A DNA stretch of 40,420 nucleotides, taken from assembly GCA_043813745.1 (NCBI GenBank), contig JBDRKV010000048.1, positions 1 to 40,420 on the forward strand. The letters run 5' to 3'. The translations under genes and the position numbers were made by a program. The stretch's first letter is position 1. Each line of letters starts with the position of its first letter. Positions 7,625-39,788 of this stretch are shown in pieces. This stretch comes from Candidatus Aenigmatarchaeota archaeon (GTDB lineage: Archaea; Aenigmatarchaeota; Aenigmatarchaeia; GW2011-AR5; GCA-2688965). Under the pieces are notes generated by a model. It was not told the origin of the DNA. It did not search any database and was given only the letters and a program-made list of their open reading frames with translations.

Positions 7625-8923
7625 TTAAAACCAAGCGCGCAGCGTCCGCTGCTGTCTGTACGCTCCAAGCACATTGCTTGCCTTCAGCAAGCTATCAATT
7701 GATTTTTTAGTTTGCATGCGCACATGTTTCAGCGCCTCGTCTAGCGTTGCAAACGTTTCTTTATATGGAAAAATAGTAATACCGTCAGCCCCATGTTCTT
7801 TAGATTCCAAGGAGCGTTTCTTACAAGAAAAGCTGCTTCTAACGTTCTCCCTGCATTCCCACACGCCTACAGGAACAGAGTATTCAGGCATGACCTCGCG
7901 CAACACAAGCACGCTTGCCTGCCGACGAATCCTGCTTAGATATTCAGCCACAGCAAACCTTACAGCATAGTACCCGCCCTCGCAGTTGCTTGCATAGTTT
8001 TTGCGGCCGAAGAAGTTTTCATAGTCCGTAGACACAGCCGGCGCAGCCGTAGGATTCCATAATGAGTTTCCGTACCACAGTTCTATCAGTTCAAACGTCC
8101 ACGTACCAGGCATAAACAGTATGTAGAACTTGTTTCCAAGATATTCATTGACATATAGCTCAAATGTATTTATCGTATCAAACCTGCGTATCTCTTTGAG
8201 CATGCTCTTAGCAAGCATGTCATCCGTCGCTGTAATCGACCAGCGCGTTGGAACCAGTTTTTTCTGCGACTTAAGCCCGAGCAAGCCTACGGAAAGTATG
8301 CGCATTAATTGGTTGACGTCAATACCATATCCATAGAGTTCGTTCATTGCTTCTACAGCTTTCAGCTCGTCGCTGACAATTTTGTCTACTTTCGTCAGCA
8401 CGTGCGGATTTTCCTCCAGCTTCACTGCTTTTAATATAGCAGGCGCTCCAATCGGCGGCGTTGTTAAATCCAGTTGCATCGCAACATAAGGCTTTTTCTT
8501 CAGAAAGAATTCCGTAGATGGCGGCTTCGCCGCCATCGCGATCTCCTGCGCTACTTCCAGCGTCTTTGTTTCCGAGCGCACGCTGGTGCGCTCGCGTGAA
8601 TGAATGAGCTGCGTGCGCGCATCCATAATGTCTTCCAAGCCATAGCTCTTTTCATACCAGAAAGTCGGCGCATCAAGCTTCCAGGCATCGCTGCTTACGC
8701 TGGCAGGAGAGAGCAGCCCGATATTAATTTCCGGATAGCCCGCGCGCCCGACAAACGGCGAAACTCCGGAAGCGTTAAAGTTTTCCTTCAGCCTGGCTAT
8801 TTCCACTTTATGCACGTTCAATCGTTCAAGTATTGGACACGGCTTGCCGCAGAGATTTTTGCCCTTACACCTTATGCATAATGTAGATATTTTCCCGAGG
8901 CTTTTCTCAAAAGGCTCTAGCAT
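7625..8923 (-). CDS. nreA: Nre-family DNA repair protein (archaeal)
   Basis: N-terminal Cys cluster CIRCKGKNLCGKPCP, and the length and overall pattern of Nre_N/Nre_C proteins as I recall them. Confidence 0.6.
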   Translation of the reverse strand: MLEPFEKSLGKISTLCIRCKGKNLCGKPCPILERLNVHKVEIARLKENFNASGVSPFVGRAGYPEINIGLLSPASVSSDAWKLDAPTFWYEKSYGLEDIMDARTQLIHSRERTSVRSETKTLEVAQEIAMAAKPPSTEFFLKKKPYVAMQLDLTTPPIGAPAILKAVKLEENPHVLTKVDKIVSDELKAVEAMNELYGYGIDVNQLMRILSVGLLGLKSQKKLVPTRWSITATDDMLAKSMLKEIRRFDTINTFELYVNEYLGNKFYILFMPGTWTFELIELWYGNSLWNPTAAPAVSTDYENFFGRKNYASNCEGGYYAVRFAVAEYLSRIRRQASVLVLREVMPEYSVPVGVWECRENVRSSFSCKKRSLESKEHGADGITIFPYKETFATLDEALKHVRMQTKKSIDSLLKASNVLGAYRQQRTLRAWF

Positions 8924-10782: not shown

Positions 10783-11118
10783 ATGCCTAATGAAAGACGA
10801 GCACGAGTGGTAGTGTTAAAGGCTGTTACATTAAATAGGTATTCTCATGAAGTGGTGTGTAGAGAATTTACTGATGACCAACACCACCAAGAAACTAAAA
10901 AAATAGAATTAACTGGAAGAGACGCTGCCGCTTTTGCGACCCATGATACATTCAAAGTTCGTGAAACTGTTAAATGGCAAGGAATGGTTTACAAACATGT
11001 TGATGATACAGACGATGGTACGTTTGTATTTGGCGATAGATGCTATCCAGGCAGGTTTTCTTTGTATGTCCCTTCTGAACAGGACCATCCTGGCAGACGA
11101 ATAAGATTCAAACATTAA
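10783..11118 (+). CDS. hypothetical protein (orphan)
   Basis: Uninterrupted ORF. A TATA-like CATTTATAAG lies about 22 nt upstream of ATG 10783. I recognise no motif. Confidence 0.4.
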   Translation: MPNERRARVVVLKAVTLNRYSHEVVCREFTDDQHHQETKKIELTGRDAAAFATHDTFKVRETVKWQGMVYKHVDDTDDGTFVFGDRCYPGRFSLYVPSEQDHPGRRIRFKH

Positions 11119-11176
11119 AATAATTCAACCAGCCCAACATCATCTTATTTAAAAATTTGGGAATCCAGTTATTACT

Positions 11177-18018: not shown

Positions 18019-18321
18019 CTAGATTATTATCCTTCCGCTAATTTCACTGCCAATAAGCTTTTCAATACTGATCGCCTTTCCACTCGCCTTCACCAACTTG
18101 TCAGACGCTTTTTTGGAAAATCCGTAAGCATATATCGTAACAGGTTTAGTAATGTTTCCGTCAAGCACCTTGCCCGGAACGATGATTGTTTCATTTTCCT
18201 TCGCAATCGCATCTATCTTTGTCAGCCCGATGTCCAAATCACTCTTCAGCCTGCGGGCTATTTCCTTGCACATGGGCTTCCTCATTCCACAAAACTTTTC
18301 AATCAATTTTCTTTTTTCCAT
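18019..18321 (-). CDS. rpl18e: ribosomal protein L18e
   Basis: VPGKVLDGNITKPVTIYAYGFSKKASDKLVKASGKAISIEKL. It sits in the canonical position before L13. The track start 18333 lies inside repeat B3. Confidence 0.8.
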   Translation of the reverse strand: MEKRKLIEKFCGMRKPMCKEIARRLKSDLDIGLTKIDAIAKENETIIVPGKVLDGNITKPVTIYAYGFSKKASDKLVKASGKAISIEKLIGSEISGRIII

Positions 18322-18379
18322 GGTATTCACCATATTGTTTCTTTTGAACCCAAGGGCCTTTTCTTTACAAAGAAAAGGG
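18322..18379 (-). repeat. family B-like element, copy B3 (5' of rpl18e), diverged
   Basis: AAGCCCCTTTTCTTTGTAAAGAAAAGGCCCTTGGGTTCAAAAGAAACAATATGGTGAATACC. It has the same hairpin layout, with stem changes compensated. Confidence 0.6.
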
Positions 18380-18400
18380 GCTTATGCCGGGGGTGAGATT
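18380..18400 (-). repeat. exact 21-bp duplicate of the tRNA-Leu 3' end plus trailer
   Basis: gcttatgccgggggtgagatt occurs at 18380-18400 and at 18491-18511. Confidence 0.9.
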
Positions 18401-18490
18401 ACTGGAAAAGACCGTGAGTCTTTTCAGTTCCCGACGAGCTTTGCTCAGTCGCGGATGAACTCCGTTCAAATCTTTATATTAATCCTGTGA
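18401..18490 (-). repeat. 90-nt three-hairpin insert (element X) between the two tRNA-3'-end copies
   Basis: Minus sense: TTAATAT..., then hairpins CGGA-GTTCA-TCCG, CGACTGAGC-AAA-GCTCGTCG and ACTGAAAAGAC-TCACG-GTCTTTTCCAGT. Confidence 0.7.
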
Positions 18491-18495
18491 GCTTA

Positions 18496-18664
18496 TGCCG
18501 GGGGTGAGATTTGAACTCACGAAGACACTAAGTCACAGGATTTCTTAAATCCAGGTTAATATTTTATATCAACCCACTTTTCTTTGGATTCCAAGGAGCC
18601 TTTCTTTTTAAAGAAAGGCTGCTTCTTAAGTCCTGCCCCGTTGACCAGACTTGGGTACCCCGGC
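18496..18664 (-). tRNA. tRNA-Leu(UAA) with an 83-nt intron (exons 18664-18625 and 18541-18496)
   Basis: Hand-folded. Acceptor GCCGGGG/CCCCGGC, anticodon stem CAGGA/TCCTG, loop CTTAAGA, variable arm GACTTAGTGTC, T arm GTGAG-TTCAAAT-CTCAC, discriminator A. No CCA is encoded. Confidence 0.85.
18542..18624 (-). repeat. family B element, copy B1 (the tRNA-Leu intron)
   Basis: Near-identical to 39692-39763 over about 70 nt: GAAGCAGCCTTTCTTT..AAAGAAAGGCTCCTTGGAATCCAAAGAAA...GGTTGATA.AAAATATTAA. Confidence 0.85.
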
Positions 18665-18724
18665 CTAGTCTAATCATGGAAACGGGATTTATTAAACATT
18701 TGTTGATTTGTATTCCTGCTTGCA

Positions 18725-18754
18725 GTTTTCCGCAAGCCATGTTTTAAAGGGCTT
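18725..18754. repeat. family E partial copy (3' half)
   Basis: GTTTTCCGCAAGCCATGTTTTAAAGGGCTT. Confidence 0.55.
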
Positions 18755-18760
18755 GGTTGG

Positions 18761-18827
18761 GGTTTCCAAGGGATACATGGATACGAAGTATCCGTGGTTT
18801 TTCCGCAAGCGCTTTCCTAAAGGGCTT
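18761..18827. repeat. family E element, copy E1 (between rpoD stop and tRNA-Leu promoter)
   Basis: GGTTTCCAAGGGAT-[CATGGATAC GAA GTATCCGTG]-GTTTTTCCGCAAGCGCTTTCCTAAAGGGCTT. Confidence 0.8.
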
Positions 18828-19611
18828 ATTTAACACTTTTCTTCAGTTCTTTCTCGAACTCTTTGGCATCCGCCTTCATACCATCCAGCGCTGCCATCAG
18901 GACGTATTCAATGGGCTTGCCGGATATGCTCTCGGCTGTAAACAAAAATTTGCTGTCGTCTCCGCTGACTTTCGTCGCGCCGGATGCAACGCATTTCATA
19001 CACATGTTGCAGCGGTCGTTGTTCGTGACAACTATCTTCCCGTCTCTTTTTGAAAAGACATTTTTAGGGCACATGCTCATCGCTTCCTCGGGTTCGCCCT
19101 CGTCTGTGAGCGACACTTTTGGGTTGTATTTGTACCCGACCACAGCTGCCTGGTGCTTTGCATGCGAGCTGCCACAGCCGAGTTCTGCAGTTGCTTCGAA
19201 CTTTATCTGCTGCCCTTCAAGCAGTTCTATTATCGGCACGCCTGCAGCAGCCGGCTTGACGCTGCCGTCAGTTGATTTCATGTCCTCTCCATGCACAATG
19301 CACGGCCCGGTTTTATCTAGCACGAGCGTAACCTGGCAATGACTGCAACCATCCTTACATTTGCACTTGTCACGTTGTTTGAAAACCTTTTCATCAAACG
19401 TCAATGGTATCAAACCTAATCTGTGCGCTATGATCTCGTCGAATAAGCCTGAATTGTTTTTTTCGAAATAAACCTCTTTAATCGCCATCGTGGACACGCC
19501 TGTCATCATGTAACGCCTCAATGCATTTGCAAAAGCAGGATTACTCTCCTCCAGTACAAATGTCATCTTCTCTTTGGACTTTTTTTGCACATGTATTTTC
19601 ATAAAAATCAT
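18826..19611 (-). CDS. rpoD: DNA-directed RNA polymerase subunit D (Rpo3) with ferredoxin-like Cys cluster
   Basis: AFANALRRYM, GLIPL, Cys clusters CKCKDGCSHC and CNMCMKCV. It sits in the canonical S13-S4-S11-RpoD order. Confidence 0.9.
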   Translation of the reverse strand: MIFMKIHVQKKSKEKMTFVLEESNPAFANALRRYMMTGVSTMAIKEVYFEKNNSGLFDEIIAHRLGLIPLTFDEKVFKQRDKCKCKDGCSHCQVTLVLDKTGPCIVHGEDMKSTDGSVKPAAAGVPIIELLEGQQIKFEATAELGCGSSHAKHQAAVVGYKYNPKVSLTDEGEPEEAMSMCPKNVFSKRDGKIVVTNNDRCNMCMKCVASGATKVSGDDSKFLFTAESISGKPIEYVLMAALDGMKADAKEFEKELKKSVK

Positions 19612-19614
19612 CTC

Positions 19615-19645
19615 GTTTTCCGCGAGCGCTTTCCTAAAAGTTTCA
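19615..19645. repeat. family E partial copy E3 (fills the rps11-rpoD spacer)
   Basis: GTTTTCCGCGAGCGCTTTCCTAAAAGTTTCA. Confidence 0.55.
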
Positions 19646-26707: not shown

Positions 26708-26770
26708 GGTTTCCAAGGGATTGTGCGCTGCGAAGCACGCACGTTTTCCGCAAGCGCTTTCTTAAAGGGC
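26708..26770. repeat. family E element, copy E2 (after the MEMO-family gene)
   Basis: GGTTTCCAAGGGAT-[GTGCGCTGC GAA GCACGCAC]-GTTTTCCGCAAGCGCTTTCTTAAAGGGC. Confidence 0.8.
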
Positions 26771-26819
26771 TTACCCAAATCACTCCTTTGTTTCGTACGT
26801 GGGTTTCGTTTTCAGTTAA
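26771..26819 (+). pseudogene. duplicate of the last 15 codons plus stop of the MEMO-family gene
   Basis: 49 bp, 46/49 identical to 26659-26707. All three differences are at third codon positions (GTG/GTT, TTT/TTC, TAG/TAA). Confidence 0.85.
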
Positions 26820-28347: not shown

Positions 28348-28375
28348 TAAGCAGATGAAAAGAAAAAGCTGCTTA
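28348..28375. terminator. stem-loop between convergent rpl10e and cbf5
   Basis: TAAGCAG-ATGAAAAGAAAAAG-CTGCTTA. It overlaps the cbf5 stop codon. Confidence 0.35.
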
Positions 28376-29287
28376 TAAAACCCTGTCAACCTTCACAGCC
28401 GCGCCCTTGCTCTTAATCATCTCGCTCGCGTCCATCTGCACATTGCCCAGCGCTATAAGCGCTCCGTTCAACGAAACCAGGGCAACAACGTCGTTGTTTA
28501 TAATATTCGATTGTACGCGGCTCACGCCTCCGGCGTAGAGCGCAGAACCGTTGCGCACGTTCTTTATCGCGCTGTCCTTTATCACGACGATTTTGGCAGC
28601 CCTCAGGCAGTATTCTATCGGCAAAACGATTTCGCGTATATTTTCATCTCCGTTCTCGCGCCAGAAAACAAAACTATCTTTCAGCTCCTGCAACGTATGT
28701 GATTCACTTTCAGTAAAAGGCCCAACGCGCACACGACGAAGCTCTTTCATGTGCGCCCCGCCGATTTTTTCGCCGATGTCATGCACCAGTTTTCTTATGT
28801 ATGTTCCAGCCGCACACGCTATTTGCAAGCAAACGTCTTTGTCAACACGGTCAAGGATTTCTATCTTGTAGACATTTCTGAAACGTTCAACGCGCTTCAC
28901 AGCAGACTTCACAGGCGGTTTTTGTTTTATCGTGCCAACAAACTCTTTTAGAGTGCTTACAAGTTTTTTGTCATCAACGTCCCTATGCGCGTGCATCACG
29001 CACACGTATTCCTTGTCTAATCCATTCAGCAATGGCATGACCTTGCACGCGTTCTCTGTCGTTATCAACAGCACGCCCGAAGTTTCAGGGTCTAGCGTCC
29101 CGGATTGGCCCGCTTTCTTCAAGCCAAGCATTTTTTTCACGGTCGCAACCGTGTCTTGCGACGTTGGCCCTGCCGGTTTGTCTAGAACCAAAAAACCATT
29201 TTTCAGTATCTCGCTTATTGCTTTAGAAGAAGGACTAGTTCCAGATGGAACATCCGCTGTCCGAACTATAAATCCGCTTTTCATCAT
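28373..29287 (-). CDS. cbf5: tRNA/rRNA pseudouridine synthase Cbf5 (TruB family, with PUA domain)
   Basis: VLDKPAGPTSQD ... GTLDPETSGVLLI, plus a C-terminal PUA-like region. ATG 29287 overlaps the upstream stop (ATGA). Confidence 0.85.
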   Translation of the reverse strand: MMKSGFIVRTADVPSGTSPSSKAISEILKNGFLVLDKPAGPTSQDTVATVKKMLGLKKAGQSGTLDPETSGVLLITTENACKVMPLLNGLDKEYVCVMHAHRDVDDKKLVSTLKEFVGTIKQKPPVKSAVKRVERFRNVYKIEILDRVDKDVCLQIACAAGTYIRKLVHDIGEKIGGAHMKELRRVRVGPFTESESHTLQELKDSFVFWRENGDENIREIVLPIEYCLRAAKIVVIKDSAIKNVRNGSALYAGGVSRVQSNIINNDVVALVSLNGALIALGNVQMDASEMIKSKGAAVKVDRVL

Positions 29288-29886
29288 ATCTGAATGCCCA
29301 TTAGTTTTCTGATTATGAACATGAACGGTATAGATACTATGAAATACCATCCCAGCCAGCCCAGATCGTCGCCGAACATCGGCAGACTTATGGGCAGAGC
29401 AGCAACCACGCGCTGGAATTGTATCTTATCGTCTACTTCAAAAATATTCCATATATTGCCCGCAATAACGATTTTCTCAGCTGGTATGCTTAGCGATGCT
29501 ACATTTATTTCCTCGCCGTCCAGCATGATCGAGCTCTGGTTTTTGGCAATATAAACGTCATTGTAATGTGCGTGAGCCCATGGAAGCAGTAATGCGACGA
29601 CAATCAGTGAAACAATCATGGGCTTCATAGTCTTTTTCATCATCTGGTTGCTCACTTTCATGGACTCGCTCATTAGTTTTTTGGTTTCGTCCGTGTTGTT
29701 CTCTTTCCTGGATTTCTTCATCTTCCTATTGAGCTCCTTGGACACCCGTTTCATCGCGGCTATTTCGTCCTGCTTTATAAGGAACTTGTAGCAGATATTG
29801 ATGATTACCAAGATTATGATAGAAAACATAAAGATAGAAATAACAGGATGAAACCCTGTCAAAAAACCTAGTATAATATCCAACAT
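29284..29886 (-). CDS. DUF106/EMC3-like membrane protein (archaeal YidC/Oxa1-like insertase candidate)
   Basis: TM1, then the K/E/M-rich helix KRVSKELNRKMKKSRKE...MMKKTMKPM, TM2, and the C-terminal GWLGWYFIVSIPFMFIIRK. Confidence 0.55.
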   Translation of the reverse strand: MLDIILGFLTGFHPVISIFMFSIIILVIINICYKFLIKQDEIAAMKRVSKELNRKMKKSRKENNTDETKKLMSESMKVSNQMMKKTMKPMIVSLIVVALLLPWAHAHYNDVYIAKNQSSIMLDGEEINVASLSIPAEKIVIAGNIWNIFEVDDKIQFQRVVAALPISLPMFGDDLGWLGWYFIVSIPFMFIIRKLMGIQI

Positions 29887-38946: not shown

Positions 38947-39678
38947 CTAAAAATTCTCCTGTATGAACCGTTCCAGATAGATTAGTTCATTCGGATTTCC
39001 GAACGGTACCCAATAACTCTTCGCCGGCACGATGCGAACTTTGTGCGCATCTGCGAGCAGCTGCACAGCAGACGTGATTTCGTATTCTCCGCGCTCTGAG
39101 CGTTTTATTTTTTTCAGCGCCTCAAAGATGTCAGGCGTGAACTTCCACAAGTTCGCGTTAACAAGCTTGTCTTGATAGAACTCCTTGATCTCACCAGCAG
39201 ACGGCTTTTCAACAATCCTGCGCAGCCATCCCTGCTGGTCTGTCGAAAGTACAGCGTATTTTGTGGGGTCCATTGCACGATAGCCCATGCCATAGCAAAC
39301 GTCGTCGTTAATAACTTTCTTGAACCGAGCCATGTCATCCGGCGAATACAAGTCATCGCCGTTGACCATTACAAAGTTTTGCCCGGCAACGAAGTCTTCC
39401 GCAGCTTTCACAGCATCGCCTGTGCCTCTTGGCTCTGGCTGGTTGATGAAAGATATTTTCATGTCAAAATAGTGCTTGTTCTTCTTTACCCAGTCCTCCA
39501 TCATTTCTTTCTTGTAATTTACAACAATGCCCACGTCAGTCGCGCCGGCAGTCTTAAGGTTGTGTAGTAACCAATATAGGAACGGCTTGCCGGCTACAGG
39601 TATGAGCGGCTTTGGTATCGTAGCCGTAAGAGGCATCATGCGCGTGCCCTTTCCAGCAGCTAAGAGAACGACTTTCAT
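38947..39678 (-). CDS. sugar-phosphate nucleotidyltransferase (RfbA/GlmU N-domain-like)
   Basis: MKVVLLAAGKGTRMMPLTATIPKPLIPVAGKP. Confidence 0.8.
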   Translation of the reverse strand: MKVVLLAAGKGTRMMPLTATIPKPLIPVAGKPFLYWLLHNLKTAGATDVGIVVNYKKEMMEDWVKKNKHYFDMKISFINQPEPRGTGDAVKAAEDFVAGQNFVMVNGDDLYSPDDMARFKKVINDDVCYGMGYRAMDPTKYAVLSTDQQGWLRRIVEKPSAGEIKEFYQDKLVNANLWKFTPDIFEALKKIKRSERGEYEITSAVQLLADAHKVRIVPAKSYWVPFGNPNELIYLERFIQENF

Positions 39679-39763
39679 TGAAAAAAACCTTCCTTAATAT
39701 TTTGTATCAACCATATGTTTCTTTGGATTCCAAGGAGCCTTTCTTTACAAAGAAAGGCTGCTT
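39679..39763 (-). repeat. family B element, copy B2 (immediately 5' of the nucleotidyltransferase ATG)
   Basis: Same core as B1. Its 3' end supplies AATATTAAGGAAGGTTTTTTTCA just before the ATG. Confidence 0.85.
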
Positions 39764-39788
39764 CTGCAGCTAAGAGGACTATTTTCAT
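39764..39788 (-). pseudogene. relic duplicate of the first 25 nt of the nucleotidyltransferase gene
   Basis: ATGAAAATAGTCCTCTTAGCTGCAG versus the gene's ATGAAAGTCGTTCTCTTAGCTGCTG, which is 21/25 identical. Confidence 0.75.

Follow-up and report, generated by a model that had tools for sequence, protein, structure and literature searches.

The 3′ ends of tRNA genes are classic landing pads of archaeal and bacterial mobile DNA. To our knowledge, the elements described so far at such ends either carry an integrase of their own or are plain decaying scars. The mycobacteriophage Ms6 report places the attB core in the T-loop of a tRNA-Ala gene, with the integrase crossing over in that loop (PMC1762012), and the Islander work sets out a logic of regenerated target plus displaced fragment for islands at tRNA genes (PMC4383910). 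Casposons also target tRNA 3′ regions, with the TΨC-loop region as a 'leader' and target-site duplications (TSDs) of 14-15 bp and up to 35 bp, and they may sit in tandem with one shared TSD between them (PMC5137440, PMC4779613); the TSD of the A. boonei casposon overlaps its tRNA by only 5 bp (PMC5137440). Here we describe a 90-nt non-coding insert bracketed by an exact duplication of the 3′ end of a tRNA-Leu(UAA) gene in an Aenigmarchaeota-like DPANN archaeon. The stretch analysed, referred to below as the window, is the whole 40,420-bp source contig. We favour, with a probability of about 0.58, the reading that the insert is a miniature, non-coding and structure-conserved insertion module of the attL/attR or TSD type at the tRNA-Leu 3′ end, belonging to a clade-wide family, and that the tRNA uses the first of the two repeat copies.

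The 21-nt sequence GCTTATGCCGGGGGTGAGATT is found exactly twice in the window, on the minus strand, at 18491-18511 (copy 1, attL-like) and at 18380-18400 (copy 2, attR-like, a displaced tRNA 3′ fragment identical to copy 1 at 21/21 nt). The 40,420 bp hold no third site even at three or fewer mismatches, and the 21-mer is matched in 0/100 dinucleotide shuffles. Default ARAGORN and Rfam runs miss the tRNA-Leu gene at this site; ARAGORN run with introns places tRNA-Leu(UAA) at 18496-18664 on the minus strand, with exon 1 at 18625-18664, an 83-nt anticodon-loop intron at 18542-18624 and exon 2 at 18496-18541, and with no CCA encoded. The intron has a canonical bulge-helix-bulge (BHB) motif at 37/38 (H 4/4, h 5-6, h′ 2). 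Copy 1 consists of tRNA nt 58-73 (18496-18511), that is, A58-A59-U60 of the T-loop, the 3′ strand of the T-stem, the 3′ acceptor strand and discriminator A73, followed by the 5-nt trailer TAAGC (18491-18495). Both the exact 21-bp duplication and its make-up, half a T-arm, the 3′ acceptor strand, the discriminator and a 5-nt trailer, had been read from the sequence in the original prediction, and both hold with the gene placed in this way. Copy 1 alone completes a canonical cloverleaf of 86 nt in ARAGORN and is the functional tRNA 3′ end.

The module itself occupies 18401-18490 on the minus strand and was characterised by folding, inverted repeats, covariation and its homologues at the loci L003, L085, L091 and L092. 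It contains no open reading frame (ORF), and the three consecutive hairpins originally proposed for it are borne out (hairpin 1, 18456-18468; hairpin 2, 18429-18455; hairpin 3, 18401-18428), with a minimum free energy (MFE) of -26.5 kcal/mol and z = -2.9. Stretches of the module are complementary to the adjoining tRNA: the left arm TCACAGGATT (18481-18490) to tRNA nt 38-47, the left end TAAGCTCACAGGAT to nt 39-51, and AGATTTGAAC to the T-loop region. The T-loop complement co-varies with the tRNA, reading TTCAAAT in the window versus TTCGAAT in other lineages. In the modules, the T-stem 5′ strand and the 5′ half of the T-loop are also partly copied in direct orientation (GGAGTTCA in the window, CGGTTCG in the others), ~55 nt upstream of the copy that runs from AAU to A73; in the window, GGAGTTCA (18456-18463) and copy 2 form a T-arm-like helix that is split by hairpins 2 and 3. 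The TTAATAT box noted earlier exists as the TATA-like TTAATATAAAG (18472-18482), although it sits at insert nt 9-19 and not at the insert start. Relative to L003 and L085, this box is carried by an extra 12-nt insertion that is lineage-specific, and the window module has 6 additional nt (AAGCTC) at its left end. A C/D-box RNA, K-turn, ribozyme or other known RNA is rejected: Rfam at E <= 10 (window 18300-18760; L003 10780-11180) matches nothing beyond the tRNA and some miRNA-like hairpins due to chance. Nor does the other strand of the insert hold a tRNA or pseudo-tRNA, as judged by ARAGORN, Rfam and inspection by eye.

For comparison, 92 homologous loci were gathered with rpoD as the handle, 1 via RpoD on genome contigs, 80 via RpoD on metagenome contigs, and the remainder through exact-protein look-ups with RpoD and L13 relatives; exact-protein look-ups with the L18e and RpoD of the window gave no match, and L18e is too divergent to serve as a retrieval query (3 matches). 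The closest RpoD proteins, from Aenigmarchaeota-like DPANN metagenome-assembled genomes, are 58-62% identical to that of the window. Homologous modules lie 3′ of the same tRNA-Leu in four further lineages (L003/L004, L085/L086, L091 and L092), each ending with a copy of the tRNA 3′ end of its own genome, 17, 16-17, 23 and 20 nt long, respectively. In L003/L004 the tRNA-Leu(UAA) gene is followed by a 128-nt insert and then by the 17-nt copy (AATCCGGCCTCCCGCA plus T). At least 2 tandem 93-nt units, each made of a 77-nt module and a 16-nt core, follow the gene in L085/L086, and the final core has one mismatch; the unit number is a lower bound, with an N-gap in L085 and a break inside the tandem units in L086. 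L091 and L092 have one module each, and their direct repeats of 23 and 20 nt reach 7 and 4 nt beyond the tRNA into the rpl18e-proximal flank. The duplicate starts at T-loop nt 57/58 in all five lineages, as it does in a more distant cassette described below (L057), and the repeat cores of the window differ from those of the other lineages at 5/16 positions. Across the family, modules measure 77-128 nt and have in common the block GGATTCGAACCTCGGTTCGTGTGTGACTGAGCA...GCTCGTCAACA and the same three hairpins. Between L003 and L085 a 33-nt core is identical and the next 12/13 nt match despite an RpoD identity of 72%, while the spacers outside the module cannot be aligned. As separate observations on L003, rpl18e is absent between tRNA-Leu and rpl13 (10936-11172) with the module retained, and the loop of hairpin 2 holds a nested hairpin repeat of ~55 nt that recurs at L003:8718-8746 and in L002.

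The hairpins have diverged in a compensatory manner. Between the window and L003, the hairpins and the T-stem-like helix show 13 two-sided changes and 0 one-sided changes, and the single-nucleotide bulges are conserved. In the alignment of the five lineages, 92.6% of cells pair, compared with 31-42% when the partners are slid, and both sides have changed in 11 pairs, compared with 4.2 +/- 1.4 in shuffles (0/500). Because it is pairing rather than sequence that is conserved, the pattern would point to a single-stranded form, either RNA or single-stranded DNA (ssDNA), and away from a palindrome bound by protein as a duplex.

The module is confined to this one site in the material searched. A covariance model built from three modules scores 77-96 bits on modules and finds nothing else in 411 kb, so the module is locus-restricted and not dispersed; blastn likewise finds no further copy of the insert in the window, and the search for more copies proposed in the original prediction therefore found none in this material. 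A virus or plasmid origin is rejected, with 0 matches to the 21-mer and the module cores in viral contigs and no blastn match in plasmid and phage collections. The left end of the module compared with its reverse-complemented right end falls within the shuffle range in the window, L003 and L085, so that no terminal inverted repeats (TIRs) are detected in these three. As stated in the original prediction, no integrase is present: among the contig ORFs of at least 150 aa, no integrase, recombinase, casposase or transposase domain is found, and a 121-aa ORF that was also scanned lacks a family match, as do four of the ORFs of at least 150 aa. Recombinase, casposase and transposase genes are also absent from the gene lists of the L003 and L085 loci.

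Relatives show the same site in several states. An empty site is present in one species represented by four assemblies (L001, L088, L089 and L090), with ~90% nucleotide identity to L085, and there the tRNA directly abuts the rpl18e flank TATATGGTG.... L008 has an empty site with the flank type of the window, the tRNA being followed by the TAAGCCCCTTTC-hairpin with no insert. The comparison for an empty site thus proved positive in three settings, namely L001/L088/L089/L090 versus L085, L008, and, at a greater distance, L067 versus L055. L002 and L087, which come from one sample and overlap by 17 nt, join into a spacer with a decayed module that keeps remnants of hairpins 1 and 3, without hairpin 2 and without a second core. 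L002 taken alone was considered as a further instance of the module and rejected, since part of its similarity is the separate nested hairpin repeat shared with L003:8718-8746 and the joined spacer is decayed. By RpoD identity (58-62%) the window is sister to a clade with L085/L001, L003 and L002. The modules follow the same order: that of the window is 62-67% identical to the others, and those of L003 and L085 share 79%, against RpoD identities of 58% and 72%. The module is therefore probably old in the clade, with clean loss in one species, decay in a second and amplification in a third. The match of the flanking cores to the tRNA of each genome requires re-insertion, recurrent unequal exchange or conversion, or selection.

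The tRNA-Leu next to rpoD is an insertion hot spot for unrelated cargo. In distant Aenigmarchaeota, whose RpoD is ~42% identical to that of the window, a tRNA-Leu(GAG) gene occupies the same rpoD-proximal slot. The site is empty in L067, and in L055 and L059 it holds an unrelated, unstructured 84-nt insert (fold z = +0.7) with a 13-nt duplicate. In L058 (3442-5506) the 84-nt mini-insert is followed in tandem by a second element that starts with the same 10 nt (CTCTCAACAT), and in L057 (1089-1907) an 812-bp MazE/AbrB-PIN toxin-antitoxin cassette without an integrase is bounded by a duplicate of 20-21 nt, which again has its start in the T-loop. The pattern of states at tRNA-Leu(GAG) fits that described for integrative elements at tRNA genes.

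The module family resembles integrase-type elements at tRNA genes (Ms6, Islander islands and archaeal elements of the SSV/pNOB8/pTN3 type) in its direct repeat of the 3′ part of the tRNA, in an identity block that runs from the T-loop to the 3′ end with the gene regenerated and the displaced fragment at the far end, and in the reuse of the same tRNA by different cargo, with empty sites in relatives and tandem occupancy. Unlike these elements, the module is only 77-128 nt, encodes nothing and has no integrase close by. Rather than a random remnant, it represents a structured unit that is conserved and diverges in step with its hosts, and its repeat may run into host-specific flank. Like cis-mobilizable elements (CIMEs) and MITEs (miniature inverted-repeat transposable elements), it is small and non-coding, would need functions supplied in trans and shows presence/absence polymorphism. 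In contrast to both, it has no TIRs and is found at one locus only in the 411 kb searched, and it is far smaller than described CIMEs.

On the insertion-module reading, copy 2 would be the displaced tRNA 3′ end, made when the module inserted or recombined into the segment from the T-loop to the 3′ end. The tRNA would mature from copy 1, with the module and copy 2 carried along in the spacer between the tRNA and rpl18e. Insertion, gain, loss and amplification of modules, as well as the identity of the cores to the tRNA, could all stem from recombination at the repeated core. The catalyst may be a site-specific recombinase or integrase acting in trans, with crossover in the T-loop, or else host recombination or slippage between the repeats may be responsible, and the hairpins may act in single-stranded form, as ssDNA or RNA, as recognition or stability elements. 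Of the two kinds of integration scar raised in the original prediction, the miniature non-autonomous insert agrees with the states in relatives and with the hot spot; a deletion remnant is a poorer fit, since the family to which the insert belongs is conserved and preserves its hairpins through compensatory changes. Several points weigh against the insertion-module reading. Judged from sequence comparison, the divergence of modules tracks that of their hosts, which favours long vertical residence over recent mobility. Neither the ORFs of at least 150 aa on the 40-kb contig nor the loci of relatives include an integrase, casposase or transposase, and viral contigs, phages and plasmids yielded no copy of the module. 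A circle of 93-111 bp would be too small for a conventional double-stranded recombination substrate, and a repeat of 16-23 nt that extends into lineage-specific flank is an awkward match both for a TSD of fixed length and for a foreign attP.

The main rival account, which we regard as rather unlikely, is a vertically inherited, cis-acting structured RNA of single origin, no longer mobile, in the co-transcribed spacer between tRNA-Leu and rpl18e/rpl13. Such an RNA might be a stabilising or processing element of the 5′ untranslated region or an insulator, and its terminal mimic of the tRNA 3′ end would be held identical to the tRNA by selection or concerted evolution. Module identity parallels host phylogeny, the L003 and L085 modules agree over the 33-nt core and the following 12/13 nt when RpoD is just 72% identical and the other spacers are unalignable, and compensatory evolution extends over all three hairpins and the T-stem-like helix. 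The orientation and position of the module are also constant, and copy 2 restores the context of a tRNA end plus ribosome-binding site in front of rpl18e. Against this account, the module is dispensable, since the L001-type species (4 assemblies) lacks it cleanly and L002+L087 has a decayed form; its tandem repetition in L085 is odd for a precise regulatory RNA, and L003 keeps it though rpl18e is gone. Copy 2 has no 5′ partner strand in the module and cannot fold like a tRNA alone, no Rfam family is matched, and pairing of the T-loop and the anticodon-stem strand of the tRNA with hairpin 1 and the left arm is possible, which would hinder tRNA folding rather than help it. The insertion-module and cis-RNA readings have a common origin story and differ on present function. 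A more speculative reading, which we think doubtful, would make the module a self-contained, structure-defined RNA or ssDNA unit that propagates and also homogenises itself at one tRNA T-loop through host enzymes of recombination or tRNA recognition, without a dedicated recombinase of its own, or else a 'tRNA 3′-quarter mimic' RNA. In the latter case the T-arm-like helix together with the acceptor 3′ strand has the architecture of an RNase P external guide sequence, and its function may be tied to the expression of tRNA-Leu or rpl18e.

A casposon-type (Cas1) or other transposase TSD around a MITE-like derivative would account for the lineage-specific flank (5, 7 and 4 nt) that the window, L091 and L092 have within their duplicates, as expected of a true TSD, and the module shares with casposons a tRNA 3′ region as target, a TΨC-loop palindrome beside the duplicated segment, a similar duplicate size (14-15 bp and up to 35 bp for casposons) and tandem copies parted by one shared duplicate (PMC5137440; PMC4779613). 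We nevertheless hold this origin to be improbable. No module has significant TIRs, the duplicate varies in length from 16 to 23 nt, cas1 and polB are found in neither the element, the contig ORFs of at least 150 aa nor the related loci, dispersed copies are lacking in the 411 kb searched, and the duplicate lies almost wholly within the tRNA (nt 58-73) and not mostly downstream, compared with the 5-bp overlap in A. boonei. The original prediction had also raised a second, non-canonical intron in the T-loop, with splicing between the copies and the mature 3′ end taken from copy 2. By sequence either copy yields the same mature tRNA, non-canonical introns are known in the tRNAs of DPANN and Thermoproteales, and when the long precursor is folded with RNAfold, copy 2 is the partner of the 5′ acceptor strand in the MFE structure. 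BHB scans of every register that deletes one repeat period, in the window and L003, with the anticodon-loop intron as positive control, nonetheless reject this idea: register 59/60 pairs the T-stem only (H 1/4 in the window, 2/4 in L003), after A73 the CCGG palindrome alone pairs (h = h′ = 0), and the control scores H 4/4, h 5-6 and h′ 2. Even a relaxed scan, with a genome-wide background of ~2.4 motifs per 210 nt, returns no candidate in the module region. With no BHB joining the copies at any junction the intron proposal fails, and we consider it highly improbable; copy 1 already completes the cloverleaf, so that removal of the insert is not needed for a functional tRNA, and the tandem modules of L085 and the empty sites of congeners are not intron-like. 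The module does recall archaeal non-canonical BHB introns and split or tri-split tRNAs in that a tRNA gene is interrupted or duplicated around the T-loop, with a T-arm-like helix split at 57/58, in a lineage rich in unusual introns. It departs from them in lacking a BHB, in having a complete upstream gene and in occurring in tandem, and no partner half-gene or complementary leader is evident in the 40 kb; the tandem copies and the pairing, within hairpin 3, of sequence beside copy 2 argue against a 3′ piece of a split or tri-split tRNA. Finally, repeats can mislead assemblers, and both the N-gap of L085 and the break of L086 fall in tandem units, yet an assembly artefact or a trivial local tandem duplication is scarcely credible. 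Assembly k-mers are usually longer than the 21-bp repeat, no second copy of the 90-nt insert occurs in the contig, and the homologous architecture recurs in five lineages, in independent assemblies (L003+L004; L085+L086; L091; L092), which argues against an artefact. A larger tandem duplication that includes rpl18e-proximal sequence had been named as a finding that would refute the original proposal; the duplicate does reach 4-7 nt into the flank in L091 and L092, and the unit is tandem in L085, but the insert is not a copy of neighbouring sequence and so a simple local tandem duplication does not account for it.

The site is positioned between rpoD and rpl18e in an archaeal cluster with the gene order S13-S4-S11-RpoD-[tRNA-Leu]-L18e-L13-S9-RpoN. 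On its upstream side the tRNA has as neighbour rpoD (RNA polymerase subunit D; 18826-19602, minus strand), which is taken from the ORF list and encodes 258 aa with PF01000/PF01193. The first gene 3′ of the module, rpl18e (18019-18321, minus strand; ORF list, PF00828, P0121), has an alternative start at 18333, and its synteny is common to L001, L085, L091 and L092. Between copy 2 and this gene, at 18322-18384 on the minus strand, lies a hairpin repeat element that is 76% identical to intron positions 18579-18624 (the alignment scores 40, and shuffles 15 +/- 2.3), followed by the ribosome-binding site and start codon of rpl18e. The element opens with TAAGC, the 5 nt that form the trailer portion of the 21-bp repeat, and it is also found 3′ of the tRNA in L008. 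Because the trailer is the 5′ end of this element, the present 21-nt identity was set after the element was in place.

This hairpin element recurs in the window, where the copy next to rpl18e is the fourth. The 83-nt tRNA-Leu intron (18542-18624, minus strand) is itself a copy of the repeated element of ~72 nt, AGAAGCAGCCTTTCTTT..AAAGAAAGGCTCCTTGGAATCCAAAGAAA..GGTTGATAyAAAATATTAA. A second copy, 96% identical, lies at 39694-39765 (minus strand) just upstream of an NTP-transferase gene, and within 39656-39788 (minus strand) it is flanked by an imperfect 23-nt direct duplication of the gene start, ATGAAAATAGTCCTCTTAGCTGC / ATGAAAGTCGTTCTCTTAGCTGC (20/23 identical). The duplication creates a 37-codon upstream ORF that ends in ATGA and overlaps the real start codon, and this copy is the second insert in the contig bounded by a duplicate of ~20 nt of a gene end. 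A third, partial copy (7795-7840, minus strand) is inside an Nre-family gene (7625-8923, minus strand), whose protein, compared with the syntenic orthologue of L003 (61% identical), has an in-frame 21-aa insertion near the C-terminus that coincides with the element (around 7735-7840). BHB motifs around the copies at 39.7 kb and in the Nre gene were considered and rejected, the candidates being at the background level of ~2.4 per 210 nt genome-wide. The presence of the element as a tRNA intron suggests that the intron was gained from a mobile hairpin element, or as one.

A second intergenic hairpin motif, AAGCCCTTT..AAAGCGCTTGCGGAAAA, follows stop codons in the window (18726-18754, 18799-18827, 19616-19638 and 26744-26773). 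L008, with an RpoD identity of 52%, has it after rpoD too, and a D-loop intron of its tRNA-Leu is composed of two copies. The motif could serve as a signal for a terminator or promoter, or could be one more mobile hairpin. The tRNA-Leu(UAA) genes of relatives (L001, L085, L002; L008, L010) have two introns, at ~31/32 and 37/38, or D-loop plus anticodon-stem introns, and ARAGORN mis-assigns the anticodon and even the tRNA identity of these genes. Intron position and content are thus highly fluid in the clade. In Crenarchaeota, cbf5 is the classic example of an archaeal protein gene interrupted by a BHB intron; in the window, the Cbf5/TruB-PUA pseudouridine synthase gene (28373-29350, minus strand) looks uninterrupted.

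The locus reveals a family of gene-less hairpin units of 77-128 nt at a single tRNA-Leu across a DPANN clade, seen in all the states expected of a life cycle and with flanking repeats that track the tRNA of each host. If the units are mobile, they would be among the smallest site-specific integrative units known and would suggest that genomes of ~1 Mb harbour a recombination activity acting in trans. Were they instead host RNA, they would represent a new tRNA-linked structured RNA, and should a self-propagating unit or a tRNA 3′-quarter mimic prove correct, it would be a kind of element not described in archaea. With a tRNA intron that copies a repeated hairpin element, the locus also offers a concrete case for the debate on how mobile DNA shapes the introns, splits and fragments of archaeal tRNA genes.

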